Origin: a virus
Reading direction: 5' to 3' (one strand)
DNA length: 33,152 bases
Virus genome (UHGV): UHGV-0189815
Of the stretch, positions 1 through 13,014 are shown piece after piece. The notes beneath the pieces are model-generated. The model was not told the DNA's origin. It saw only the letters and a program-made list of their open reading frames with translations, and ran no database searches. A program made the position numbers and the translations under genes. The number at the start of each line of letters is the position of its first letter. The stretch's first letter is position 1.

Positions 1-747
1 GTGACCAAACTCAAACTTCTGGCACTTGGAGTGCTTATCGCAACGTCTGCAGGCGTAGCGCACGCTGAAGGTAAATTTTCCCTGGGCGCAGGCGTAGGTG
101 TCGTTGAACACCCATATAAAGATTACGATACCGATGTTTACCCAGTACCGGTAATCAACTATGAAGGCGATAACTTCTGGTTCCGTGGCTTAGGTGGTGG
201 TTACTACCTGTGGAATGACGCAACGGATAAACTTTCAATTACCGCTTACTGGTCGCCGCTTTACTTCAAAGCGAAAGACAGTGGCGATCACCAAATGCGT
301 CACCTGGATGACCGTAAGAGCACCATGATGGCTGGTCTGTCTTATGCTCACTTTACCCAGTACGGTTACCTGCGTACCACCCTGGCTGGCGATACCCTGG
401 ATAACAGCAACGGCATTGTCTGGGATATGGCCTGGTTGTATCGTTACACCAACGGTGGCCTGACCGTGACTCCGGGTATTGGTGTGCAGTGGAACAGCGA
501 AAACCAGAACGAATACTATTATGGCGTATCGCGCAAAGAGTCCGCTCGCAGCGGTCTGCGTGGCTATAACCCGAACGACAGCTGGAGCCCTTACCTGGAG
601 CTGAGCGCCAGCTACAACTTCCTCGGCGACTGGAGTGTTTACGGTACCGCGCGCTATACCCGTCTGTCTGATGAAGTTACTGACAGCCCGATGGTGGATA
701 AATCCTGGACTGGCCTGATTTCTACCGGGATCACCTACAAATTCTGA
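1..747 (+). CDS. mipA: MipA/OmpV-family outer-membrane protein (MltA-interacting protein); host flank
   Basis: 248-aa ORF with N-terminal signal peptide (MTKLKLLALGVLIATSAGVAHA) and a beta-rich, aromatic C-terminus ending ...TGITYKF typical of outer-membrane barrels; I recognise the sequence as enterobacterial MipA. GTG start at window edge. Confidence 0.85.
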   Translation: MTKLKLLALGVLIATSAGVAHAEGKFSLGAGVGVVEHPYKDYDTDVYPVPVINYEGDNFWFRGLGGGYYLWNDATDKLSITAYWSPLYFKAKDSGDHQMRHLDDRKSTMMAGLSYAHFTQYGYLRTTLAGDTLDNSNGIVWDMAWLYRYTNGGLTVTPGIGVQWNSENQNEYYYGVSRKESARSGLRGYNPNDSWSPYLELSASYNFLGDWSVYGTARYTRLSDEVTDSPMVDKSWTGLISTGITYKF

Positions 748-961: not shown

Positions 962-1954
962 TTATATTTTCATCGTAGCTAATGGGTTTAATGTCACCGC
1001 ATCAAACAAATGATCAGGGGCAAAGTGGGCATACGTCATCGTTTGTTGGATTTTGTGATGGCCCAGGACTCGTTGAAGTACCAATATGTTTCCTCCGTTT
1101 GCCATGAAATGAGAGGCGAAAGTGTGCCTGAAAGCGTGAGTTGCCTGTCCGTCAGGTAGATCAGGAACAGCGCCTTTAATAACTTTTCGTGCAGTCTGAT
1201 AGCTCGCATCCGGGAAAATCAGTTGTTTGTCGTGTACTTCAATCCTCTGCATTAACTCCATTTCCAGTTCCTTACCGATAGGAACTGAACGTGATTTGCC
1301 ATTTTTGGTTTTTGTAAATGTCACCATGCCGTTAACCAGTCTCTGCCTGGTTAATTTTGCACCTTCACTCCATCGTGCACCGGTGGACAGACAAAGTTTG
1401 GCTATCAGCTTGTTGTCGCCTGTTAACTCTGTCAGAACCGTTCTAATCTGTTCGTCAGTAAAATATCCCTGTTCTGATTCGGTCAGTTTCAGTTCTGCGA
1501 GTCCAGTCATTGGGTTGTTATCCCAGAATAGATCCAGTTCTTTCAATTTACTGAACACTGACTTCAAGTATCGTTGTTCATTATTTAACGTTTTTGGCGC
1601 GATCCCTTCTGCCCGCCGTTTTGTTCGGTACTCTGCAAAAAGCTGGGCGGTGAGTTGGGTTATACGTGGATTATTTAAGCGCGCGCATGAGGCATTCAAA
1701 ATCCATAACCGGTTTTTGCAGTCGGTGAGCGTTTGCCCGTGGTTCTTCCACCACAATTCGATCAGTTCAGATAACCGACGCCGATCAGCTGGTTTTTCCA
1801 GCCATTCTTTATTATTAGCACTGGCTATTATCCAGCGTTCAAAGGTGACAGCCTCTGATTTAGTGGAGAATGAACGCCTGACGCGCTTCCCGGAACGCCC
1901 CGCAGGCCGAACATCAACCATGTATTTTCCGTTGTCCTTTTTAGTAATGGTCAT
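962..1954 (-). CDS. int: Phage integrase, tyrosine recombinase (P2 Int-like)
   Basis: 330-aa ORF; N-terminus (KKDNGKYMVDVRPAGRSGKRVRRSF.TKSEA) and C-terminal catalytic region (LSTGARWSEG ... HAFRHTFASHFMANGGNILVLQRVLGHHKIQQTMTYAHF) align with my memory of P2 integrase; conserved R...H.R..Y active-site context present. Confidence 0.9.
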   Translation of the reverse strand: MTITKKDNGKYMVDVRPAGRSGKRVRRSFSTKSEAVTFERWIIASANNKEWLEKPADRRRLSELIELWWKNHGQTLTDCKNRLWILNASCARLNNPRITQLTAQLFAEYRTKRRAEGIAPKTLNNEQRYLKSVFSKLKELDLFWDNNPMTGLAELKLTESEQGYFTDEQIRTVLTELTGDNKLIAKLCLSTGARWSEGAKLTRQRLVNGMVTFTKTKNGKSRSVPIGKELEMELMQRIEVHDKQLIFPDASYQTARKVIKGAVPDLPDGQATHAFRHTFASHFMANGGNILVLQRVLGHHKIQQTMTYAHFAPDHLFDAVTLNPLATMKI

Positions 1955-2058: not shown

Positions 2059-2337
2059 TTATTGGTTAATAGATTGTTTTGGCGAGCGAAGAGGGAAAAG
2101 CGCCGGATCGATTTGCCCGGATGATGCTGCGGTCTTATTTGTCATCATCCATAACGTATATTTATTGAATCTGGGGTTTCGGGTGATCTTCAATAAATCA
2201 ATATCAGGCAGCGTCATTATTATTTGCTGCCTGAATTGATACAGTGTCTTCTTCGAAATATCACAAAATATCGCGAATTCGCAGATAGTGAGATTTTCAG
2301 CATTAATTATCAAGAATAAGCGGTTACGCAAGGACAT
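2059..2337 (-). CDS. P2 C-type repressor paralog (int-proximal copy, 'C2')
   Basis: C-terminal segment NPRFNKYTLWMMTNKTAASSGQIDPAL closely matches the P2 C repressor motif (PQFTKYTLWFMTNQIAPESGQIAPAL). ORF track starts at 2364; the internal ATG at 2337 has a GAGGTG Shine-Dalgarno just upstream, so the shorter 92-aa form is preferred. Sits directly upstream of int, as C does in P2. Confidence 0.6.
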   Translation of the reverse strand: MSLRNRLFLIINAENLTICEFAIFCDISKKTLYQFRQQIIMTLPDIDLLKITRNPRFNKYTLWMMTNKTAASSGQIDPALFPLRSPKQSINQ

Positions 2338-2380
2338 ATACACCTCGATTGCTATTATTGGCATTCAGGGCGCAAATATA

Positions 2381-2398
2381 TTGTTCGCACACGAACAA
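2381..2398. promoter_or_regulatory. Perfect inverted repeat TTGTTCG-N4-CGAACAA in the promoter region upstream of the int-proximal repressor paralog
   Basis: 18-bp palindrome read directly from the sequence in the AT-rich intergenic region 2365..2518; candidate operator. Not a LexA-box consensus. Confidence 0.3.
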
Positions 2399-2518
2399 AT
2401 TTTAGCCAAAACTGCTTATCAGTAATTCATGTATGTAATAAATGGTAATTATCAATCAATATAAAATATATGTTGTATATTTTTTGTGTAATTTATTAAA
2501 AAGTAATATATCGCACAA

Positions 2519-2953
2519 TTAGAACAGATCTTTTACCAAAGCGATTATGACTCCTGCTGTAGCGAAAAGGGCAGAGCATAGCCATATCATTTGCTTATGT
2601 AATCCCTTTGCAAGATCTTCCCTGGTTGCGGACCTGGACTCTTTGAGTTCGCCGCTAATCTGTGCCTTAAGCTCGCGCATATCTCCGGTCATCTGCGCAC
2701 GGAGTTCTTTCATATCCCCAGTTATCTGCGCCTTGAGTTCACGCAGATCGCCCTTTGAGGCGAAGTCATCAGCGCGCGCGTTGAGATGGGTAAGTTCTTT
2801 AACAATTACACCGGTATTGTCTTCCAGTTTTTCAACGCGTTTTATTAGGCTGTTCATGCCGTTGCCTCCGTCGTCACTACTGTTTGTGGACTCATTATTT
2901 ATGGGTACCTGACGTTCTCTTATATGATGAACATTATCCTTAGTCTGACTCAT
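2519..2953 (-). CDS. Tail-anchored coiled-coil membrane protein with tandem 11-residue repeats (moron gene; function unknown)
   Basis: 144-aa ORF with AAGGA Shine-Dalgarno 8 nt upstream; repeats GDLRELKAQIT/GDMKELRAQMT/GDMRELKAQIS (33-bp DNA period, about 2639..2752); single C-terminal hydrophobic helix (MIWLCSALFATAGVIIALV). Its start overlaps the stop of the upstream gene. Confidence 0.7.
   Translation of the reverse strand: MSQTKDNVHHIRERQVPINNESTNSSDDGGNGMNSLIKRVEKLEDNTGVIVKELTHLNARADDFASKGDLRELKAQITGDMKELRAQMTGDMRELKAQISGELKESRSATREDLAKGLHKQMIWLCSALFATAGVIIALVKDLF
2639..2752. repeat. About 3.5 tandem copies of a 33-bp coding repeat inside the coiled-coil gene
   Basis: Repeated 11-aa units in the translation correspond to near-identical 33-nt units in the DNA. 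Confidence 0.7.
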
Positions 2954-3389
2954 TTTTGCATTCCTTGCGATTCTCTTCTATCCATGCGACGACCGGGCGG
3001 GCGCGATAAATGCTGATATGCCCGCAGTTTGGGCAATTAATTTTATATTCGACATCGGCTAATCTTATTTTTGTATGAGTATTCACAAACACGGGCGTTA
3101 CATACCAGAGAGTATTATCAGCTGCGAATTTCTCCTGATCGATTTGCGATAAAGAGTCATAGTTTTCGGGAGTCTTTGCACCGTTATAAACTCCGTTTTC
3201 GGACATTGTTAATTTAGTAAATCCACATGATATGCAGAACTGAGCGGCGTTTTTTGACATCAAAAATTCAGCGAATAATTCAGGGGTAACTTGTTGTAGC
3301 CTTTTCATAAGTTCTGGTGATGGTTCTCCATAGCGGGAATTACGAGGTGGGCGTATTGGGGGTATAAATGTATCATTATCTTTTGACAT
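2940..3389 (-). CDS. Hypothetical protein with Cys-rich zinc-ribbon-like motifs (moron gene)
   Basis: 149-aa ORF with AAGGA Shine-Dalgarno upstream; CxxC (CISCG) and CPNCG motifs; AT-rich codon usage unlike the neighbouring phage genes; apparently co-transcribed downstream of the repressor. Confidence 0.65.
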   Translation of the reverse strand: MSKDNDTFIPPIRPPRNSRYGEPSPELMKRLQQVTPELFAEFLMSKNAAQFCISCGFTKLTMSENGVYNGAKTPENYDSLSQIDQEKFAADNTLWYVTPVFVNTHTKIRLADVEYKINCPNCGHISIYRARPVVAWIEENRKECKNESD

Positions 3390-3431
3390 ACATTTTCCTT
3401 ATGTATTATTCGCCCGCAGTGCGGGCGGTGA

Positions 3432-3692
3432 TTAACCGGTCTTTTTCTCTTCTTTGGTAACTGGTGCTATCTGACCTGCTTCTGGTGCGGTGATGTCAGA
3501 CATCAGCCATAGCGTGTATTTTTGAAAGCGCGGGTGTTGGGCGATTTTAACCAAAGCACTACCACCAGGTTCATACCCCCCCGTTTCATATTTCCTAAGC
3601 GTATTTATAGATAAGTCAATAACTTCGCAAAACTCATTCTGACTAAGACCTTCGGCTGCTCTAATCGCTTTTAATTTTTCACCAAGTTTCAT
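3432..3692 (-). CDS. P2 C-type immunity repressor (switch-proximal copy)
   Basis: C-terminal HPRFQKYTLWLMSDITAPEAGQIAPV matches the P2 C repressor motif; transcribed divergently from the Cox-like gene. ORF track start 3707 is a TTG; the first ATG is at 3692; the true start is uncertain. Confidence 0.7.
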   Translation of the reverse strand: MKLGEKLKAIRAAEGLSQNEFCEVIDLSINTLRKYETGGYEPGGSALVKIAQHPRFQKYTLWLMSDITAPEAGQIAPVTKEEKKTG

Positions 3693-3700
3693 TTGACAGT

Positions 3701-3746
3701 AGTCCAATTAGACATTAAATTTCCCTTCATGCAGTCTAATTAGACT
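3701..3746. promoter_or_regulatory. Candidate operator pair in the lysis-lysogeny switch region
   Basis: Two 14-bp palindromic sites, agtccaattagaca (3701..3714) and agtctaattagact (3733..3746, perfect palindrome), spaced 32 bp apart between the divergent repressor and Cox-like genes. Confidence 0.45.
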
Positions 3747-3789: not shown

Positions 3790-4209
3790 ATGACACCAGA
3801 GCAAAACAGAGCTTTACCCGCACATCAGGAGGCTGATCCTGGTTACTACCCGGTCGTTGAACTGGCACAAGGCGCGTTTTTACCCGAACAGACTCAAAGC
3901 AATCATCAGCGCCGCGCTCGGCGATCCCCTGATAGTCGTTCTGAACGTGAACTAATGGCAATTGACCGCGCACTGAAACATATCCTTAGTAGTGGCATTA
4001 AACCGGTTTTAACAGTGCAGGAATTTTCCGAATTCTTCGGACAGTCTTTGCGTAAGGTTCAAAGCGATGCTGAGCGCGGCTATCTGCCATTAGTGCCGCG
4101 TGTCGATCCAAATCGTCGCGAACTAAGACAAATCAATATGGTTGCATGGTATGCCAGAGCTTTTATGACTGCCGAAGCCAGCCTGACAAAAACGACAGCG
4201 TTTAATTGA
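3790..4209 (+). CDS. Cox/Apl-like excisionase-type regulator (first gene of the early rightward operon)
   Basis: C-terminal part (TVQEFSEFFGQSLRKVQSDAERGYLPLVPRVD...MVAWYA) resembles P2 Cox (PYQEFAKLIGKSTGAVRRMIDKGKLPVID...WVYLPAW). Start ambiguous: ATG 3790 has an AGGA-type Shine-Dalgarno; the internal ATG 3955 would give a Cox-sized 84-aa product. Confidence 0.55.
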   Translation: MTPEQNRALPAHQEADPGYYPVVELAQGAFLPEQTQSNHQRRARRSPDSRSERELMAIDRALKHILSSGIKPVLTVQEFSEFFGQSLRKVQSDAERGYLPLVPRVDPNRRELRQINMVAWYARAFMTAEASLTKTTAFN

Positions 4210-4217
4210 GAGGAAAA

Positions 4218-4454
4218 ATGTTTAATCCACTTAACACAGAAAAGGCGCGGGAAGTCGATCCGTTTTATGAAGGGTACGACGTGCCGGTATATGTGCAACC
4301 GGGTAAGCGACTGCCCGTCGCGATCGAATCCCGCGAAATGGAAATGGCAATTCTGGCCGCGTTTGATTACGGCATTGACGCACTGAACGATGACGGACGC
4401 CACCAACTGGACCGCCTGATCGCTGATCTAAAGCTTGCCATTACTGGCAGATAA
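4218..4454 (+). CDS. Hypothetical early protein
   Basis: ORF in the early operon; likely start at ATG 4218 (MFNPLN...), with GAGG upstream. No recognisable motif. Confidence 0.45.
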   Translation: MFNPLNTEKAREVDPFYEGYDVPVYVQPGKRLPVAIESREMEMAILAAFDYGIDALNDDGRHQLDRLIADLKLAITGR

Positions 4455-4465
4455 ACGGGTGCGCA

Positions 4466-4687
4466 ATGAGCCAATATTTTTTTTCGGGGATATTTAATGT
4501 TGCGGTTTTTATTTTGGGGGCCGTTGTTGTTTGGTCCTACGGAAGATTAAAAAACAGTAGCAACAGAATCCGTTTTATTGACGCATTACACAGGGATATT
4601 GAAGCGGCGGCACCATTATTTTTAGATGTATTTTGTGGCTGGTTGCTAATATTTGGCGTCGTTTCCCTTTCAGAGTGTCTTTTATGA
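4466..4687 (+). CDS. Hypothetical small membrane protein (two predicted transmembrane helices)
   Basis: 73-aa ORF with two hydrophobic segments; AT-rich; position in the early operon. Confidence 0.35.
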   Translation: MSQYFFSGIFNVAVFILGAVVVWSYGRLKNSSNRIRFIDALHRDIEAAAPLFLDVFCGWLLIFGVVSLSECLL

Positions 4688-4914
4688 GTGAACAACAAAT
4701 TCCTTCATTCGCCAGTCTATTACGTAACGGTTGCCAGGTCACACATTGCAAATCGACGCGCGGCTGGATTGAAACACCGGACGGGCGTTATTTTAAGCCT
4801 GAACCGGCAAAAGTTCAGTTTATTAAGGGCAGAAACAGGCCTTTTGTATATACGCAAAAAATAAACAGGGGCGTAATAGCCGCATTGATTAAATTAATTA
4901 AACGCTATTTTTAA
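4684..4914 (+). CDS. Hypothetical early protein
   Basis: In-frame ATG at 4684 (MSEQQIPSF...) inside the ORF-track ORF 4633..4914; overlaps the stop of the upstream ORF. Confidence 0.4.
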   Translation: MSEQQIPSFASLLRNGCQVTHCKSTRGWIETPDGRYFKPEPAKVQFIKGRNRPFVYTQKINRGVIAALIKLIKRYF

Positions 4915-4991
4915 TTAACTGAATTTATTAAATATCACACATCACTTTAAAAAGTGGTGCGGATTCTTTCAACCTAAAAACGGGTAATTAT

Positions 4992-5207
4992 ATGTCTATG
5001 ACTAAACGGGATGAATACAGTTTTGTATTGCATTCATTTTTACCGGAGCTTGAAGAGCGCGGAATGACTATAAAAACGCGTAACGCAGGCGAATTAACAC
5101 TGGCATCAACAGATCCTGATGTTGTTGCATTTATACAATCCATGCGCCGTCGTCTTACTAATGCGCTGAGCCGTCCATCTCTTCCCTCTTCACCATACGG
5201 AATCTAA
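4992..5207 (+). CDS. Hypothetical early protein
   Basis: 71-aa ORF immediately upstream of, and same strand as, the exonuclease gene. Confidence 0.45.
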   Translation: MSMTKRDEYSFVLHSFLPELEERGMTIKTRNAGELTLASTDPDVVAFIQSMRRRLTNALSRPSLPSSPYGI

Positions 5208-5209
5208 TC

Positions 5210-5797
5210 ATGAATAATATAATGATTGACATTGAAACATTAGACAATAAACCAACTGCCGCAATTGTTTCTATTGCTGCCGCATTTTTCGATCCCCGAA
5301 CTGGCGAGATTGGGATGTCTATTTATATTCCCGTCAATGTTGCTGATGCTCAATACAAAGGGGCGACAATTGGTGCGGATACTGTTAAATGGTGGATGAA
5401 GCAAAATTTATGCGCAAGAGATGAGCTTGTATCTGATGCTGGCTTGCCTTTATCAGAGTCGCTCTATAAGTTGAACGATTTTTGTTGTTTTTGTGATGAT
5501 TCAGACAATTTAAAAATATGGGCGCGCGGCACTGATTTTGATTTACCAGTTATTTATCACTCAATGCGCCTGACAGGGATTCGTCCGGCCTGGAATTTCT
5601 GGAATGCTCGCGACGTTAGAACGGTTGCAGAAATCGCGCTGACAATATGCGGTCATTCATCAATGCGCGCGGTTCTGGAACATCCGCATCACGCAATGAA
5701 TGACGTTATTAACCAGATTGCCAGATTAAGCGACGATATCAAAAACATTTCTGCCGTTCGCGCGGAGAAGGTGAATCATGATTCGCCGGAAAAATGA
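5210..5797 (+). CDS. DEDD-family (DnaQ-like) 3'-5' exonuclease
   Basis: Exo I motif IDIETLD near the N-terminus and HHAMNDV (H-x4-D) near the C-terminus, as in DEDDh exonucleases; 195 aa. Confidence 0.7.
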   Translation: MNNIMIDIETLDNKPTAAIVSIAAAFFDPRTGEIGMSIYIPVNVADAQYKGATIGADTVKWWMKQNLCARDELVSDAGLPLSESLYKLNDFCCFCDDSDNLKIWARGTDFDLPVIYHSMRLTGIRPAWNFWNARDVRTVAEIALTICGHSSMRAVLEHPHHAMNDVINQIARLSDDIKNISAVRAEKVNHDSPEK

Positions 5798-5999
5798 TAA
5801 TTGCCCCGCCTGCGTTGTTGATCAGGCACACAATTTAATTAATGAATTCCGACAGGGTCGCCGCGATAAAGTGCGGCGGCTGGCGACTGGTTATCTGTCA
5901 ATTGCAATCGGCAGATGTTGGCGGTTACTGAGTAAAAACGACGGCCAGCAATGGACTTTATTAACTCACGAACGATATAACAAGGAATATAAAAAATGA
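5778..5999 (+). CDS. Hypothetical small protein with CxxC motif
   Basis: 73-aa ORF with AGGTGA Shine-Dalgarno; overlaps the exonuclease stop and abuts the dam start (translational coupling). Confidence 0.5.
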   Translation: MIRRKNDNCPACVVDQAHNLINEFRQGRRDKVRRLATGYLSIAIGRCWRLLSKNDGQQWTLLTHERYNKEYKK

Positions 6000-7012
6000 T
6001 CAGACCGTTTTTGAAGTGGGCAGGTGGAAAAACTCGCGCTTTGCCTGAGCTGCTGCCGCACTTGCCAAAGGGTTATTGTCTGATGGAACCATTTGTTGGC
6101 GGCGGTTCGGTATTTTTAAACACAAGTTATGATAAGTATGTTTTAGCTGATATTAATTCAGATCTGATAAATACGTATGAAAACGTGAAGCATCGCACTA
6201 ATCTATTTATTGACGTTGCACGGGAATTATTTAAAGAAGGTAATTCAAAAGAATATTATTTAAAGATTCGCAAAGAATTTAACGAACTAAATACAAGTTA
6301 CCACGAATGCGGTCGCCGCCCCTTATCACTGAGATTGTCGTTAATGCAGTCGGCGCGGTTTCTCTATTTGAATCGGCACGGTTATAACGGCGTTTGCCGC
6401 TATAACAATAAACTGGAATACAATGTTCCGTTTGGTCAACATAAGACAGCGCCGTATTTTCCCGAAGAGGAGATCCGGCGGTTTGCAGAAAAGGCGAATG
6501 ATACAAACGCAGTGTTTCTCAATCTTAATTTTGATGACACATTATCAATGCTGACATTCGGGCCTAATCTCGTTATTTACTGCGATCCGCCATATTTACC
6601 CGCCAGCGAAACCGCAGACTTTACCACGTATTACGGACAGAGATTTTCGCGGGACGATCACTGCCGCTTAGTTCAGAAATTATTAGAAATAAGTGCGCGT
6701 GGTGCTGCAAAAGTTGTTATTTCAAACAGCGACACACCCGCCGCGCGAGAAATATACGTGTCGTTTACATTTCAGGAAATTAATGTTCAACGGTCAGTCA
6801 GTGCCAATACCAGCAAACGCGCGACTGCAAAAGAAGTGATCGGATATATCCCACATTGTGAATATTGCGGGGGTCGTCTGATTACTGGCCGTCCGTGTAG
6901 TTGTGACACCCAACGCCGCACGGTTTGGGGTTGCCCTGATGGCGGCTGCGGAGCTTGTGACAGTGTCGATCTTTGTGCGAGCGCGGGGAGTGAATTCTAT
7001 GACCAGGACTAG
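5996..7012 (+). CDS. dam: DNA adenine (N6) methyltransferase, Dam family, with Cys-rich C-terminal extension
   Basis: N-terminal FLKWAGGK and FVGGGSVF (SAM-binding motif I) and catalytic DPPY motif (IYCDPPYLPA); about 60 extra C-terminal residues with nine Cys (CEYCGG...CSCD...CPDGGCGACD...C). Confidence 0.85.
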   Translation: MIRPFLKWAGGKTRALPELLPHLPKGYCLMEPFVGGGSVFLNTSYDKYVLADINSDLINTYENVKHRTNLFIDVARELFKEGNSKEYYLKIRKEFNELNTSYHECGRRPLSLRLSLMQSARFLYLNRHGYNGVCRYNNKLEYNVPFGQHKTAPYFPEEEIRRFAEKANDTNAVFLNLNFDDTLSMLTFGPNLVIYCDPPYLPASETADFTTYYGQRFSRDDHCRLVQKLLEISARGAAKVVISNSDTPAAREIYVSFTFQEINVQRSVSANTSKRATAKEVIGYIPHCEYCGGRLITGRPCSCDTQRRTVWGCPDGGCGACDSVDLCASAGSEFYDQD

Positions 7013-7196
7013 TGCGCCCGCCGTCATTACCCGTGTATTTGACATATGGGAAATAAAAAAGAATGAGCAGTATTTAATTGATGCCGAAGTGTTTATTGAC
7101 GGGTTTTACCGCAATGAACAGATCACGCGTTCCACGCGATATCAGGCAATTAGAGTTTTACCCGGTGACAATATTGATTTGAGGGGTGCGGAATGA
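6999..7196 (+). CDS. Hypothetical small protein
   Basis: In-frame ATG 6999 overlapping the dam stop; 65 aa; no recognisable motif. Confidence 0.35.
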   Translation: MTRTSAPAVITRVFDIWEIKKNEQYLIDAEVFIDGFYRNEQITRSTRYQAIRVLPGDNIDLRGAE

Positions 7197-7597
7197 CAAT
7201 TCACATAGTAGCGATTCAGCCGGATTATTTTCAGCCAGTGTTAAAACGCGAAAGACGCGCGGTGCTGTTAAATGAGGGGGATTATATAAAAGAAGATTTT
7301 TTATTTATCCGTGAGTTTGTTTTTGACGATACAGGAAAGAATCCGCCAACGGCGACAGGGGCTTGTGTCGCCGGGGTGATTACTGATGTTTATAAGACGG
7401 GGACTGGCGATGTTTTGCTGAGTTTTGATCTGTTATTTGTGTATAGCTATGTGCTTATTAATTGGGGTCTGACAAGAGGTGATCTGCTTAAACTGAGTAT
7501 TTACCCTGACTTTCTTGAAGAGCTTTTTACCGCGCACCCTCATTCGCCCGTATTTTACGCGATCGCTTACCGCATGATTGAAGAGGCGGATTTATGA
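7193..7597 (+). CDS. ASCH/PUA-like domain protein (putative)
   Basis: N-terminal pattern IHIVAIQPDYFQPVLKRERRAVLLNEGDY resembles the ASCH-domain N-terminus (conserved YF...E.R pattern); 134 aa; start overlaps the upstream stop. Confidence 0.5.
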   Translation: MTIHIVAIQPDYFQPVLKRERRAVLLNEGDYIKEDFLFIREFVFDDTGKNPPTATGACVAGVITDVYKTGTGDVLLSFDLLFVYSYVLINWGLTRGDLLKLSIYPDFLEELFTAHPHSPVFYAIAYRMIEEADL

Positions 7598-7634
7598 CCG
7601 CCTATTACAACGAAATCGATCCATTCGCTGCTCT

Positions 7635-10142
7635 GTGGCTGGCGTCTATCAATTGACGCGCGGACGCTACGCCCCAACACCGCCGCCCCCGTTCCTGGGG
7701 AGCGGCGCAGACACTACACTGTATCCATACGCGTGGAACGCCCCGCGCGCAGCAATTAGCGTTGACCGGACGCCGAAACATGATCCGCAGGAGTTCGCCG
7801 CAGAATACGAATTCTGGCAGCGTGTAAAATCCACTTTTCAGCCATATCCGACATTCATCCGCCGCCGCATGATGGCGCGCGTTGAACGTTCTCACGAAAA
7901 GCAGGGGCGACACGTCGCGGCGCTGGCGCTGCGAGATATCGCCAGCCGCGAATTAATCCACATTTCCGCCGTTATGCAGCAGTATTCCATAAGCCCGCCC
8001 CGCAATGCTGGGCGGGTTTATGAAACGCCGTTTGTTGGCCTTGAGCCGCTCTATCACAATTTTGAACAACTCACCGATCTGATCCGTCGTTTCGACACAC
8101 TGCCTGATTATTCGCCGGAGGATGTTGAATTACTGGCGCAGGACGTCGCAATTTACGCAAACGCCACACTGGCAGAAATTGCCGCAGATTGTGAACACCT
8201 GGACGAAATCGAAACTGGCCGGCGGTTTTACGCTGAATTGAAAACGTTGGCTAACGTTTTTCACGTCACGGCGGCAAGGGCAAACAAAAAACGCTTGTTG
8301 CCCGACGAGCTGGCGGCAGCGATCAGCAAAATGATCGACGCGCGCTACTGGAACCGCAATTTACTGCGTTACGCCGTGCGCTGGCGGGAGCATTTGCGGA
8401 TCTCCCTGGGCGACGTGCGCCGCAGCGTGTCAACCTATTGTAGTAAAGAACGCGTGAATGCGTGGCGGGAGCGACGCGAGCGTAATCGCGACATCATGTC
8501 AAGACTGGAAATAGAAGACGTTGAATCAGGCGAGCGTTTTTCACTGCTGGAGCAGATAGAAAAAAGCGCGTCCAATCCAGCGATACGCCGCACCGAGCTT
8601 ATGACGCGAATCGGCGGTTTTGAGCGAGTAGCCAATGAGCAGGGATTTGTCGGCAGCTTTTTTACTATTACCGCGCCGTCAAAATATCACGCGTTTACCG
8701 CGTTTGGTCATCGTAATCCTAAGTGGCAAGGCGCTAGCCCGCGCGAGTCTCAAAAATACCTGAATACCATTTGGCAGCGTATCCGCGCCGAGCTGGCGCG
8801 CCAGGAAATCGGCGCTTTTGGCTTACGTGTAGCCGAGGCGCATCACGACGCAACGCCGCACTGGCACGGCCTGTTATTCACTCTGCCGGAGCATCAGGAG
8901 GCGCTACGCGACGTCATGCAGCGTTACGCAACAGCTGAGGACGCCGACGAATTAACGACGAAACACGGCATACAGCCGCGTTTCGATTTCAAACCGATTG
9001 ATCCCGAGCGGGGAACCGCTACGGGCTATATCGTCAAATACGTCTCTAAAAATATCGACGGTTACGCGCTGGATAATGAGCGCGACGACGAAAGCGGACG
9101 TCCACTGAAAGACACGGCGCAACATGCGACCGCGTGGGCGTCTACGTGGGGGATCAGGCAGTTCCAGTTTTTGGGCGGTGTGCCGGTGTCGGTGTACCGC
9201 GAACTGCGGAGGCTGGGGAATCAACAGGCCGCTGATCAGATTAATCCGCTGTTTGCCGAGATCCACGCCGCAGCGGACGCGGGGGATTGGGGCGGGTTTG
9301 TTAATCTCATGGGCGGACCGCTGGCAAAACGCGCGGATTTACCGTTGCGCACGTTTTATCAGGATAAACCGGAGCCTAACAGCTGGGGCGAATATCTGAC
9401 GGTTATCCGCGGTGTATTTATGCCGCTGATTAATATCCCGCCGGTAATAACCAGGTTGCGGGATTTTCGCATTGTTAAAAAATCGCCGGAGAGCGCGGAG
9501 CGCCCCGGTGATGGCTGTTCATCTTTTGACCTTAAGGGCGCGTCTGCGCCCGCTAGGACTTGTGTCAATAACTGTACGGAGCATGAAAAAACAGCAAAAG
9601 ATGAACAAAATATAAACAGTGAAGCGGACTTTTTGGGAGAGAAAAACAGCGGTGCGCCGCCACCGGGAGATCCCGAACAGGTTCTGATCGGCAAATTGAC
9701 ACGGGAACAACGCAAACGCCTGCGCGCTGAGTGTCTGACGCACAAAAAACAGCGTAAACAATCGGCTGCTGACGAGTTCGAAGCGCTGGCGAATCAATTA
9801 GCGACGGCGGACTGTTCGGGCGCGGACCAGCTGCGCGCAGAAAATTATTTACGTGCGGCGGCGGTCATTCGCGAGACTGAAAAACCGGTCACGGCTGCAG
9901 CGGCAGAACTGGCCGCGCGCGTCATGGAGTGGGCGAAATTGCGCAAAATACCGCTGGGCCGCGCGCAATCGCTGGCACTGGCGCAAGGCGGACAGGCGAC
10001 AGTTATTGACAACGTTTACCGGGCTAACATGAACACCGGCGAACTGATCCTGATTGACACGTTCCAGCCGTGGCGGCGTGTGCTGGCGAAAAAACAAACT
10101 GTGGAACTGATGGCGCGCTGGCGGGCTGTGGTAACCGTATGA
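7635..10142 (+). CDS. Rolling-circle replication initiator (P2 gpA-like HUH endonuclease)
   Basis: Aligns with my memory of P2 gpA: YAWNAPR, FTITAPSKYH, HUH-type TPHWHGLLF, catalytic Tyr pair GYIVKYVSKNIDGYALD, GRPLKDTA...TAWASTW. ORF-track start is TTG 7578; by alignment to the P2 gpA N-terminus the likely start is GTG 7635 (or TTG 7650). Confidence 0.85.
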   Translation: MAGVYQLTRGRYAPTPPPPFLGSGADTTLYPYAWNAPRAAISVDRTPKHDPQEFAAEYEFWQRVKSTFQPYPTFIRRRMMARVERSHEKQGRHVAALALRDIASRELIHISAVMQQYSISPPRNAGRVYETPFVGLEPLYHNFEQLTDLIRRFDTLPDYSPEDVELLAQDVAIYANATLAEIAADCEHLDEIETGRRFYAELKTLANVFHVTAARANKKRLLPDELAAAISKMIDARYWNRNLLRYAVRWREHLRISLGDVRRSVSTYCSKERVNAWRERRERNRDIMSRLEIEDVESGERFSLLEQIEKSASNPAIRRTELMTRIGGFERVANEQGFVGSFFTITAPSKYHAFTAFGHRNPKWQGASPRESQKYLNTIWQRIRAELARQEIGAFGLRVAEAHHDATPHWHGLLFTLPEHQEALRDVMQRYATAEDADELTTKHGIQPRFDFKPIDPERGTATGYIVKYVSKNIDGYALDNERDDESGRPLKDTAQHATAWASTWGIRQFQFLGGVPVSVYRELRRLGNQQAADQINPLFAEIHAAADAGDWGGFVNLMGGPLAKRADLPLRTFYQDKPEPNSWGEYLTVIRGVFMPLINIPPVITRLRDFRIVKKSPESAERPGDGCSSFDLKGASAPARTCVNNCTEHEKTAKDEQNINSEADFLGEKNSGAPPPGDPEQVLIGKLTREQRKRLRAECLTHKKQRKQSAADEFEALANQLATADCSGADQLRAENYLRAAAVIRETEKPVTAAAAELAARVMEWAKLRKIPLGRAQSLALAQGGQATVIDNVYRANMNTGELILIDTFQPWRRVLAKKQTVELMARWRAVVTV

Positions 10143-10312: not shown

Positions 10313-11635
10313 ATGTACGCTGAGTTAAATGAATTTATAAATGCTCTAGATAAATTAAAAGATTATTTTGATGAGTCTGAAAAATCATATGGGCATAAAA
10401 ATAAATGGCTTATAGAAGCATTTGGCATCGGTCATCCTGTAATGTTGCCAAAAGACTTTTCTGACTATATTGAAAGAATGATCGAGAAGTCAAAAAAATT
10501 AGAGATGCTTAAATTAACTGATTTCGAACTAGATGAACTCGACTATGTAAGAAAAGTCGTAACAAAGGTACATTCTGACCTTGCTCCTAGCTTTTATAAT
10601 GGAAATGGTGTACAAGCGATTCCTTCATTTTTAATGACCATGACATATATATCTTCATTTTTAGATTCTTTGATTTCCTTCGACCGACTCCAGGATACGG
10701 ATGCCGTACCTCAGAAATTAGCACGTAAAATACGGAGTATGGATGCAAGAGTAAGACAAGCTACTCCAGAAATTGAAACACTGGAAGGTAAAATTAAATT
10801 GATTAACGATGCATATGCCGCAGCTGATAATCTACCGGTATATATGGAAGAGTTAAATAAATACAAGGCAGAATTAACGGAAATAAAAGAGTACATTTTA
10901 AAGGCAAAAGAAGAAGCATCTCATTCGAATGTCTTAATGGATGTTTGTCTAAACGAAGGGGAAAAGATAAAAGAAGAGTTAAATGCAAAAAAAGAGATCG
11001 CAGAAAATTATCTTTCGAAATGTGAGGAAGCTATTCGTGCTTCGACTTCAAAAGGGTTAGCGGGAGCTTTTGAGATCAAAGCGAATAAGTTAAACTGTAG
11101 CATTCGTTTATGGGTAGCAGGATTATCTGCGGCATTAATTGCCGGTGGGTTTGTTGGTTATGAAAGGTTAAAAGCATTATCCAATGTTTTAGCGCAACCA
11201 GATACCAGTGCAATAGTGATTGCAACGCAATTAATACTATCCATATTTAGTATCGGCGCGCCGCTTTGGTTTGCGTGGTTGTCTACAAAGCAAATTAATC
11301 AAAGATTTAAGCTAGCAGAAGATTATGCCTTTAAGTCTGCCGTTGCAAAAGCATATGAGGGTTACAGAAAAGAAGCATCGCAACTTGATGATGGAACATT
11401 CGCTACTCGGTTGTTTGATTCTGCTTTAACCCGTCTAGAGGAAGCCCCATTAAGATTTGTCCAAGGTGATGATCACTCAACACCATGGATGGAAATGTTA
11501 AACTCTAAAGCTTTTTCTAAATTTCTTGATTCTTCGATTGATAATGTAAACTATGTTAAAAATATCCTTGATCGTAAGGCTAAACCCTCTGTAGTTGCAG
11601 ATAAGCCACAGCAGATGGAAAAGGGGACTGAATAA
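10313..11635 (+). CDS. AT-rich moron: 440-aa coiled-coil protein with two central transmembrane helices; unknown function (candidate defence/exclusion factor)
   Basis: Complete ORF with GAGG Shine-Dalgarno, AT-rich upstream region (10143..10312) and its own terminator; visibly more AT-rich than flanking phage genes; long N-terminal helical region rich in E/K, hydrophobic segments LWVAGLSAALIAGGFVGY and IVIATQLILSIFSIGAPLWFAWL, about 130-aa C-terminal domain. No P-loop or other catalytic motif seen. Confidence 0.8.
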   Translation: MYAELNEFINALDKLKDYFDESEKSYGHKNKWLIEAFGIGHPVMLPKDFSDYIERMIEKSKKLEMLKLTDFELDELDYVRKVVTKVHSDLAPSFYNGNGVQAIPSFLMTMTYISSFLDSLISFDRLQDTDAVPQKLARKIRSMDARVRQATPEIETLEGKIKLINDAYAAADNLPVYMEELNKYKAELTEIKEYILKAKEEASHSNVLMDVCLNEGEKIKEELNAKKEIAENYLSKCEEAIRASTSKGLAGAFEIKANKLNCSIRLWVAGLSAALIAGGFVGYERLKALSNVLAQPDTSAIVIATQLILSIFSIGAPLWFAWLSTKQINQRFKLAEDYAFKSAVAKAYEGYRKEASQLDDGTFATRLFDSALTRLEEAPLRFVQGDDHSTPWMEMLNSKAFSKFLDSSIDNVNYVKNILDRKAKPSVVADKPQQMEKGTE

Positions 11636-11640
11636 GATAA

Positions 11641-11668
11641 TGGGCAGTTCAAATCTGCCCTTTTTTTA
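11641..11668. terminator. Rho-independent terminator after the moron (between convergent genes)
   Basis: Hairpin gggcag-ttcaaatc-ctgccc followed by ttttttt. Confidence 0.65.
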
Positions 11669-11980
11669 GCTTGGTAACAACAGGTATAATGTTTTTTGTT
11701 TTTGTTCTGGCGACATCATATCGATCAGCGTTTTGATAGCGCGGTCAGATGAAAGCGCGCTGGGGCTTAATGTGTGAGAAAATGTTATATTAACGACGAA
11801 AGTATGACCGCACTCAACGTTATTACAGGCGCAATAAACATCTGATAGATGGGGATGTTTCCGCACGGTCTTTTTGATCGTTGAATTGCCGTTGCATTCC
11901 GGACAGATAATTTTCGGGCTGCGCAATTTGTTTCCCCTTAATCTATTTTTGAGCGGGGTATATTTTAACCGTTTAGCCAT
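11666..11980 (-). CDS. Ogr/Delta-family zinc-finger late-gene transcriptional activator (putative)
   Basis: CPECNG...YCACNNVECGHTF matches the Ogr/Delta zinc-finger pattern (CP.C ... C.N..C...F; P2 Ogr has HQCQNVNCSATF). 104 aa, longer than P2 Ogr; start overlaps the portal stop (TAATG). Confidence 0.55.
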   Translation of the reverse strand: MAKRLKYTPLKNRLRGNKLRSPKIICPECNGNSTIKKTVRKHPHLSDVYCACNNVECGHTFVVNITFSHTLSPSALSSDRAIKTLIDMMSPEQKQKTLYLLLPS

Positions 11981-13014
11981 TATTTTTCATCCTCTATCGC
12001 TTTCGGTTTTTTGAATAACACCTGCATTGCGCGGGTAATTTCAGAATCACTATTGATTGCATTCTCAATTAGCGCCTGCATGGGCCAGACTTCATCTAAT
12101 TGATATACGGCACGGACTTTTAACGGGTCGCCCAGTCCGCCCACGTTATCCGGAATAATGCCCGCAAGGCCAGGCGGGAAGCGATGGGCGGTTAACTGGT
12201 CCTGTGCGGATATGCGCTTGATATTCACATATTCATCTTTTGTTGCGACATCACCCACAGGGATAATTTTAACGCCGTCTGGTTTACCGTTGGGGATGTT
12301 AATAAACATACTGCGGAAATTACCCGCGCCTTTTGACTGTTCTATTTTTTCAGAAATGGCCTTTTCCATTTCTGGTGATAAATCCGGATCGGTGGCATAC
12401 AGGATATAACCTAAATGCGCCCCATTACGATAATATTTGCGGCGAAACATGGTCGCGTCACTATTTAACATCGCCGACTGGATGCCGCCTAAATAATCCG
12501 GTTTTCCGTAAATCTGCTGCAACGTATCGTACTGACGGATAAAAATAATATCTTTTGCGGCATATTCTTTATATTCGCCGTCGCGTAACAATAATTTTGT
12601 TTTGCCGTCAGTGGAACGCCGCACATAAACAGACGGCAGCGGGTACAGGCGCACGACCTGCCCGAAGCCGTTGCGGATCTTTAACAGCGCCACGTCACCG
12701 AACGTCACGAAGTTAACGGCCAGCGCCAGGGCGGTTTCAGGCGTCAGACCGCCGCCGCGAAGAAAACCCGCCGCGACCATTTTCGCGCGCGCCCCCAGAC
12801 ATGCGCCGTGGTACGTTGCGATGTCGGGCAATTTTGCCAGCGCTTCCCGGTCAATGGGCGGCGTCCAGTAGCCGTCTCCTTCATCTGTTACGCCATCATA
12901 TGAACCCAGGCACGGCACGCGCTCGGCGTCGCCGAATTCCACGCTAAAAGACATCTGTTTTTGAATAGCTGGCGCGAGGGCCGGGGCTGGTTGTTGTTTT
13001 TTACGTTTTGCCAT
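11980..13014 (-). CDS. Portal protein (P2 gpQ-like)
   Basis: 344 aa, the size I recall for P2 gpQ; lies immediately downstream of the terminase large subunit, divergent from the scaffold/capsid genes, as in the P2 Q-P arrangement. Confidence 0.75.
   Translation of the reverse strand: MAKRKKQQPAPALAPAIQKQMSFSVEFGDAERVPCLGSYDGVTDEGDGYWTPPIDREALAKLPDIATYHGACLGARAKMVAAGFLRGGGLTPETALALAVNFVTFGDVALLKIRNGFGQVVRLYPLPSVYVRRSTDGKTKLLLRDGEYKEYAAKDIIFIRQYDTLQQIYGKPDYLGGIQSAMLNSDATMFRRKYYRNGAHLGYILYATDPDLSPEMEKAISEKIEQSKGAGNFRSMFINIPNGKPDGVKIIPVGDVATKDEYVNIKRISAQDQLTAHRFPPGLAGIIPDNVGGLGDPLKVRAVYQLDEVWPMQALIENAINSDSEITRAMQVLFKKPKAIEDEK

Follow-up and report, generated by a model that had tools for sequence, protein, structure and literature searches.

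The virus genome UHGV-0189815, analysed here over 33,152 nucleotides (nt; hereafter the window), contains a pair of overlapping minus-strand genes, A and B, which together form a conserved two-gene accessory cassette of temperate phages. Gene A (open reading frame ORF-A, 2940-3389) encodes a protein of 149 amino acids (aa) with a putative zinc ribbon, and gene B (ORF-B, 2519-2953) encodes a protein of 144 aa, a predicted tail-anchored coiled-coil stalk. The cassette is real, conserved and uncharacterised, and combines a classical placement with unfamiliar components. No study of A- or B-family proteins was found in the literature, and the description of A-B as a conserved, translationally coupled cassette is new.

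The 3' end of A and the start of B overlap by 14 nt (2940-2953, minus strand). Each gene is preceded by a Shine-Dalgarno sequence AAGGA on the minus strand, located at 3396-3400, 6 nt before the ATG of A, and at 2962-2966, within the 3' end of A and 8 nt before the ATG of the long form of B. Both the overlap and the AAGGA ribosome-binding sites had been described in a sequence-only reading of this DNA and were borne out at these coordinates; A and B are translationally coupled. Both ORFs are real genes, being called by the Prokaryotic Genome Annotation Pipeline (PGAP) in Escherichia coli 40EC (NZ_CP070920) and having homologues across many phages. A plus-strand ORF running antisense to B (2547-2912, 121 aa) was discounted, as it probably only mirrors the repeats in the coding sequence of that gene.

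The order of elements on the minus strand is the gene of a C-type repressor, ORF-A, ORF-B, a spacer of 154 nt, ORF101, the integrase gene int and a terminator. The P2 C-type immunity repressor is encoded at 3432-3707 (minus strand; PF01381 HTH_3, 5.6e-10; phrog_147, 4.6e-29), and the gap between it and A, on the same strand, is 42 nt. The position of the pair behind the immunity repressor, as claimed earlier, holds: the terminator scan of the window detected no terminator-like site from the repressor gene through B. No promoter-like site was detected upstream of A in the scan of the window. Between the repressor stop codon and A, a 7-bp GC hairpin, CGCCCGC-ACU-GCGGGCG, lacking a U-run, is present (3411-3427, minus strand; RNA fold -17.2 kcal/mol, z = -2.6), which was not reported by the terminator scan. 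Downstream of B, the only terminator-like feature is a weak hairpin with a T-rich tail 120 nt after the gene. In phage P2, the promoter Pc drives the lysogenic operon expressing C and int (PMC3936717, PMC1904263). Since A and B lie between C and int, we infer on good grounds, by analogy with P2, that the pair is transcribed in the lysogen together with the repressor. The earlier designation of A and B as a moron pair does not apply in the strict sense, because the genes are embedded in the operon and have neither a promoter nor a terminator of their own.

The conservation of the cassette was shown by several searches. A tblastn search of phage genomes with A gave homologues of 26-39% identity from Salmonella phage SPN3UB and its relatives, from siphoviruses of Klebsiella and Enterobacter, and from a P2-like element of Klebsiella; in each of the contexts examined, A is followed by the gene of a small coiled-coil protein with a transmembrane helix at its C-terminus. 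A further 64 loci came from scanning viral and genome contigs with an alignment, bringing the total to 67. These loci contain 31 distinct A proteins, and a B-type gene is located at -37 to 0 nt after A in all of them, being truncated in one (L039). The same spacing was seen in about eight contexts besides these loci. A HMMER scan of 1.84 billion cluster representatives revealed only 54 A-family clusters (50% identity), and the contexts of seven of them again showed the order A, then B.

In the phage collection, B-type stalks are limited to records also carrying A, with the exception of Klebsiella phages Kp4864-1 and 2b LV-2017. These two phages contain a short-form B without the N-terminal peptide or the Gly tract and without A (L082, 588-1419 in Kp4864-1, OK490416.1); its partner, encoded before it, is an unrelated protein of 192 aa, which matches no Pfam family and contains an FtsH-like HEAGH motif. 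The HExxH protein was rejected as a regular alternative partner of B, because in other Klebsiella phages its gene is inserted on its own among baseplate genes (L083). No homologues of A were found in plasmids, a first scan of genome contigs with the A sequence alone returned nothing, and megablast against the phage collection gave no near-identical phage record. With A and B, word-index protein searches retrieved nothing beyond near-identical proteins; with the A profile they retrieved six proteins annotated as 'hypothetical'.

Taxonomically, the cassette is represented in phages and prophages of E. coli, Klebsiella, Salmonella and Enterobacter, as well as in genomes of Citrobacter, Pseudocitrobacter and Buttiauxella. 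It is carried by P2-like myoviruses and by unrelated siphoviruses, in the latter beside Arc/Ant accessory regions. The allele of the window is rare, being present in 7 of 5426 complete E. coli genomes, in all cases at mipA.

Most cassette sites belong to the repressor/int transcription unit of P2/186-like prophages, and three placements were distinguished. In the first, A-B lies between the repressor gene and int, as in the window, in L072 and L073, and in L075 and L076 (S24-type CI); it has arisen independently in 186-like and P2-like prophages. In the second, it lies just after int and before the attachment site att, in the order C-int-A-B-att (L002, L069-L071, L074, L079 and L080). In the third, it is found at the other end of the prophage, beside ogr/D (L081) or host gapA (L077 and L078). 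Wherever lysogeny genes are present, A-B is co-oriented with them. Locus L078 (Logan ERR12317503 contig, 3962-7980) is a decayed remnant of about 4 kb between host genes gapA and yeaD, near mipA, which keeps A-B, a truncated integrase gene and two uncharacterised genes; a cassette of this type is absent from E. coli, and the contig has no E. coli megablast match. A survey of P2-like prophages (2026) describes minor defence hotspots in the int-primase interval, with 8% of systems, and in the int-att interval, with 3% (PMC13586616). In related P2-like prophages, the lysogenic operon holds other cargo genes along with A-B, which encode a secreted protein of 135 aa, a membrane protein of 278 aa, a VasI-like protein and a tail-anchored protein resembling Flk_N (L072, 3804-4896; L069, 1494-2111 and 3111-3947). 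Because such genes share the operon with A-B, the C-to-int interval is a recurrent cargo site.

In the alignment of 45 members of the A family, residues C52, C55, C119, C122, G123 and W136 are invariant, besides the initiator Met. The CxxC...CPNCG motifs noted earlier in one of the products are thus present and invariant as two zinc knuckles, C52-I-S-C55 (3225-3236, minus strand) and C119-P-N-C122-G123 (3021-3035, minus strand). The sole family match of A is PHROG 4293 (1.7e-20, 74.4 bits, residues 27-144 against positions 7-120 of the 124 of the profile), which carries no functional annotation; A is below the threshold of every Pfam, NCBIfam and PADLOC family, including the specific Pfam zinc-ribbon families. 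The AlphaFold2 model computed from the alignment, with a mean predicted local distance difference test (pLDDT) score of 91.4 and a predicted template modelling (pTM) score of 0.77, was used, as the single-sequence model (pLDDT 33) was unusable. In this prediction, the N-terminus is helical, an insertion of about 60 residues divides the zinc ribbon in two, and a long helix forms the C-terminus; strands adjoin both CxxC knuckles, as in a generic zinc ribbon with four Cys residues. No significant fold match of the model was found in PDB or BFVD, and the A profile had no match among PDB sequences. A role of A as a DNA-binding regulator was rejected, since the family is acidic (median isoelectric point 5.3), and A is read as protein-binding for the same reason. 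A is predicted to be a soluble, acidic cytoplasmic protein-binding module with a four-Cys zinc ribbon, a putative zinc binder.

Protein B has the predicted features of a tail-anchored inner-membrane coiled-coil stalk of DUF1640-type architecture. Residues 1-32 (2858-2953, minus strand) comprise an N-terminal peptide and a Gly/Asp-rich tract, represented in homologues by [DY][FY]P[KR]...GGGGxGGD. A beta-layer motif, F64-A-S-K-G-D69 (2747-2764, minus strand), is kept in most B homologues, and a C-terminal transmembrane helix (aa 122-141; 2531-2590, minus strand; Kyte-Doolittle 19-residue maximum 2.36 at residue 122) is followed only by D-L-F. Across the family, G30, M33, R39 and E44 are invariant and W124 is near-invariant, and the B proteins are homologous to one another. 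Their common plan comprises a short peptide (often [DY][FY]P[KR]), a Gly/Asp-rich tract, an invariant Met, a heptad segment LExRVxxLE, usually the motif [FY]-A-[ST]-K-x-D, the stalk, Q-x-K-W and the transmembrane helix. Total length varies from 94 to 210 aa, and the stalk is hypervariable in both length and sequence. The stalk must be cytoplasmic, given the lack of a signal peptide in B, the basic residues ahead of the anchor, which fit an N-in topology, and the three residues behind it.

The beta-layer consensus [aliphatic]-A-T-K-[polar]-[DE] was described by Hartmann et al. for trimeric alpha/beta coiled coils and for the point at which the stalk of DUF1640 membrane proteins begins (PMC4786415). 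B resembles the DUF1640/CCDC90-like proteins (PF07798, MCUR1 family) in that such a motif, FASKGD, opens its stalk and a single transmembrane helix ends it (PMC4786415). The best PDB matches of the B profile are trimeric beta-layer coiled coils (7o92, 6h9l and 5apz; E = 8e-6 to 4e-4, values that need caution because coiled coils are compositionally biased), and the stalk is probably trimeric. In family searches, B remained below the threshold of all Pfam, NCBIfam and PADLOC families: it scored 17.4 bits against PF07798 (gathering threshold 33.5, E = 0.0042), a family that none of the ten B homologues scanned matched, and 13.9 bits against DUF883 (cut-off 25.4). XhlA (PF10779) was not matched by the B of the window; some homologues gave sub-threshold matches of 26-29 bits, the best being 28.6 (1.6e-6) against a cut-off of 34.7, and there is one weak precomputed match. 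The sequence-only reading had assigned neither protein to a known family. For A this still stands, with only PHROG 4293 and a confident model without a fold match, whereas B can now be placed by its DUF1640-type architecture and beta-layer motif, with sub-threshold XhlA matches among its homologues. Homology to phage housekeeping proteins, which would have spoken against an accessory role, was looked for, and neither protein matches one.

The coiled coil of 11-residue repeats ending in one transmembrane helix, which the same reading had recognised in B, was found as hendecads at aa 68-100 and the helix described above. Three good copies (GDLRELKAQIT, GDMKELRAQMT and GDMRELKAQIS; 7-9 of 11 residues identical) are encoded at 2654-2752 and a degenerate fourth at 2621-2653, so that the array, with units of 33 bp, occupies 2621-2752 on the minus strand. 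Hydrophobic residues are spaced 3-4-4, which is the a-d-h hendecad pattern. At the DNA level, the first three units share 21-24 of 33 positions (64-73%), above chance, and 14-15 of 33 with the fourth, and neither Tandem Repeats Finder (score threshold 30) nor a repeat finder reported a DNA tandem repeat in 2519-3389. The repeat thus persists as a feature of the protein, its codons having diverged. All of the approximately ten close relatives of this B, in E. coli genomes, two IMG/VR contigs and the P0055 cluster, keep 144 aa and unchanged repeats. In the distant homologue L072, a true DNA repeat of 27 bp is present (5683-5842, 5.9 copies, Tandem Repeats Finder score 206), encoding the nonad ATKADLQxx, a textbook alpha/beta coiled-coil repeat; in its sister L073, a deletion of 80 nt within this repeat frameshifts and splits the gene. 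Comparison of this deletion with the unchanged close relatives indicates that copy-number change occurs in the B family, but not detectably at the 33-bp units of the window. The proposal of a 33-bp repeat varying in copy number is thus retained as a repeat at the protein level, while the DNA is too diverged for slippage to be likely and the close relatives are constant.

Pairwise comparison of loci revealed modular exchange within B. Between L006 and L040, A is 93% and the N-terminal peptide of B 85% identical, whereas the stalk with the transmembrane helix is only 19% identical; between L006 and L032, the corresponding values are 61%, 61% and 96%. Accordingly, A stays linked to the N-terminal peptide of B, and the stalk and membrane helix recombine independently. 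The exchange junction is the Gly tract and the invariant Met. At this Met, a candidate second start is present: an internal GGAGG (2865-2869) lies 7 nt upstream of the Met33 codon (2855-2857) on the minus strand. The Met is invariant in all B variants, and in 14 of 19 a Shine-Dalgarno core GGAG, GAGG or AGGA, mostly GGAGG, is located at -16 to -4 relative to it; several annotation pipelines begin B at this codon. This pattern suggests two B products, namely a full-length form coupled to translation of A and a form starting at M33.

Concerning function, the preferred reading, with a probability of about 40%, is that A-B is expressed in the lysogen, where it mediates superinfection exclusion or abortive infection from the cytoplasmic side of the inner membrane. 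B would insert into the inner membrane by its C-terminal helix and project a cytoplasmic stalk of heptads, beta-layer and hendecads, probably trimeric, the tip of which would be formed by a flexible Gly-rich linker and the short N-terminal peptide. A may dock on this membrane-distal tip, and a shorter isoform of B may be produced from Met33. The membrane-tethered A-B complex, presumably made continuously in the lysogen, would act against an incoming or replicating foreign phage, with A as a sensor or regulator and B as a membrane effector or anchor. Such a role fits the placement in the lysogenic operon and the strict pairing of a soluble with a membrane protein; it also fits the mobility of the cassette across unrelated backbones, its patchy distribution, its retention in a decayed prophage and the rapid turnover of the stalk.

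A close parallel in organisation is RexAB, of which A-B would be a functional analogue. In phage lambda, cI-rexA-rexB is transcribed from PRM in lysogens, and the mycobacteriophage Sbash pair gp30/gp31 is analogous to rexA-rexB. Like rexAB, A-B is a two-gene module directly behind the immunity repressor, probably within the lysogenic transcript, with one predicted cytoplasmic and one predicted inner-membrane protein. This RexAB-like placement puts A-B among the candidates for action against other phages in the lysogen. However, no sequence or profile similarity between the two systems was found, and no PADLOC model match; the polytopic RexB differs from B, which is anchored only once, at its C-terminus, and carries a long coiled-coil stalk, and A, with its four-Cys zinc ribbon, is unlike RexA. 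Glo of Vibrio phage K139 is a single periplasmic protein, from which the cassette differs in that neither A nor B has similarity to it. Its gene, glo, is an accessory gene in a P2-like lysogeny control region and was reportedly implicated in exclusion by Nesper et al. in 1999. It has been named the K139 family immunity gene (PMC4870250).

Several points weigh against an anti-phage role. With PADLOC-DB 2.0.0, A and four homologues gave no match, and B and its homologues gave only weak coiled-coil matches to PbeC, LmuB and LeoC. No Pfam or NCBIfam defence or exclusion model matches A or B, no recognisable enzymatic or pore-forming domain is present in either protein, and an effector consisting of a single tail-anchor helix would be unusual. 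Expression could be limited by the GC hairpin 3' of the repressor gene and by the usually low abundance of the Pc transcript, and in siphoviruses the cassette is not beside the main repressor. The internal Shine-Dalgarno sequence of B could be incidental, since Gly codons alone give G-rich DNA.

A more specific form of the exclusion proposal is doubtful as a whole. In this form, A-B would be a new class of phage inner-membrane device, in which a trimeric tail-anchored alpha/beta 'ruler', B, with a length tuned by gain and loss of repeats and by module swapping, carries the zinc-ribbon head A docked on its tip peptide, is regulated by the internal-start isoform, and excludes or aborts superinfecting phages at a set distance from the membrane.

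Among other explanations, lysogenic conversion aimed at the host is unlikely. A stalk headed by A would scaffold or sequester a host inner-membrane or cytoplasmic component and alter stress tolerance, envelope or growth. DUF1640/MCUR1-type proteins scaffold membrane complexes, and tail-anchored proteins of the ElaB/YqjD type bind ribosomes; the DUF1640-like stalk and the weak DUF883 match of B speak for such a role, as do the lysogenic-operon site, the retention of A-B in a decayed prophage and the neighbouring morons in related prophages, which encode secreted proteins, lipoproteins and tail-anchored proteins such as Flk_N. However, the Pfam scores for CCDC90-like proteins and DUF883 (17.4 against 33.5 and 13.9 against 25.4 bits) are far below threshold. 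In MCUR1 and CCDC90B structures, a globular N-terminal head domain precedes the stalk; this domain is missing from B, in which only 32 residues of peptide and Gly/Asp tract precede the coiled coil. B also differs from DUF1640 proteins in its coupling to a separate zinc-ribbon gene and in its hendecad-rich, hypervariable stalk, and the patchy distribution and rapid stalk swapping fit phage conflict better than a fixed host target.

A function in the life cycle of the phage itself is also improbable. B could be an XhlA-like accessory of holin-mediated lysis, with its isoforms as a holin/antiholin timer, or A-B could regulate the lysis-lysogeny decision, integration or induction while tethered to the membrane. 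XhlA of Bacillus PBSX-type lysis cassettes is, like B, a small phage protein that combines a coiled coil at the N-terminus with a single transmembrane helix at the C-terminus, and is a membrane protein thought to work with the holin XhlB (PMC5589764). The sub-threshold XhlA matches of some B homologues, the candidate dual start, which recalls holin genes, and the constant proximity of A-B to int and the repressor gene are in agreement with such a function. Unlike xhlA, however, A-B occurs in no lysis cassette and not beside a holin or endolysin gene, all contexts examined being lysogeny or accessory regions; the pair of the window lies about 14 kb from the late genes and on the lysogenic strand. 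Moreover, B has a zinc-ribbon protein as its partner, no B homologue reaches the XhlA cut-off, and the B of the window has no match at all. A-B is also found at the ogr/D and gapA ends, away from int, and most P2-like phages lack it, as its presence in so few E. coli genomes illustrates, so that it is not a core phage function.

A toxin-antitoxin-like addiction pair stabilising the prophage, with B as a membrane-damaging toxin and A as its neutraliser, is very unlikely: the genes are small, overlapping and strictly co-inherited, and B-type genes are sometimes frameshifted or truncated (L073, L039), as toxic genes are, but short-form B occurs without A in Klebsiella phages Kp4864-1 and 2b LV-2017, no toxin-antitoxin family is matched, and the upstream-antitoxin order alone is weak evidence.

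The left end of the window (1-747) is host mipA, next to which a P2-like prophage is inserted. The tyrosine integrase gene int (962-1954, minus strand; PF24624 and PF00589) is the last gene of the lysogenic unit, and a strong terminator 3' of it (922-941, terminator scan) adjoins mipA. The spacer 3' of B (2365-2518, minus strand) is AT-rich, with 25% GC, and contains a promoter-like site (2465-2492) and, upstream of ORF101, a perfect palindrome, TTGTTCGTGTGCGAACAA (2381-2398). ORF101 (2059-2364, minus strand; phrog_147, 1.2e-15), between B and int, encodes a second C-type repressor paralogue with 40% identity over 78 aa to the repressor encoded at 3432-3707; it is intact in E. coli 40EC, though PGAP leaves it unannotated, and could be either a second regulator or what is left of an earlier C-int module. 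The true start of the C-type repressor is likely the ATG at 3692. Divergent from the repressor, a Cox-like gene is located at 3790-4209 (phrog_575), followed by the genes of the GPA replication protein (7578-10142), the Ogr/Delta zinc finger (11666-11980) and the portal protein (11980-13014). The interval from replication gene A to ogr/portal, a classical defence hotspot in P2, contains a plus-strand ORF of 440 aa (10313-11635, 36% GC), which has no Pfam match and weak PADLOC matches to LmuB and a type I methyltransferase (E ~8e-4); it is a candidate cargo gene.

Homology of the window with seven E. coli mipA prophages stops at about 3515, inside the repressor gene. The C-terminal half of the repressor (HPRFQKYTLWLMSDITAPEAGQIAPVTKEEKKTG) is common to these prophages and the helix-turn-helix half differs; because only the C-terminal half is common, the E. 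coli relatives have a different immunity specificity. Position ~3515 marks a recombination junction at which immunity specificity is exchanged, while A-B-ORF101-int is kept. Since homology ends inside the repressor gene, the block of the repressor C-terminus, A, B, ORF101 and int serves phages of different immunity.

Few phage genes are active in all lysogenic cells, and those cotranscribed with a prophage repressor belong to them; known examples such as RexAB and superinfection exclusion (Sie) proteins shape which phages infect a strain. The A-B cassette makes use of two unannotated protein families and is absent from the models of PADLOC-DB 2.0.0; it is a good experimental candidate. If it is an exclusion or abortive-infection system, it would add a new type of component, a tail-anchored beta-layer stalk with a zinc-ribbon partner, and would be relevant to the prediction of host range for phage therapy in Klebsiella and Salmonella; the inner-membrane device, if real, would provide the first function for a prokaryotic DUF1640-like stalk. 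Whatever its function, A-B represents a compact natural system for the variation of alpha/beta stalk length, for tail-anchored membrane insertion in bacteria and, possibly, for dual-start regulation.

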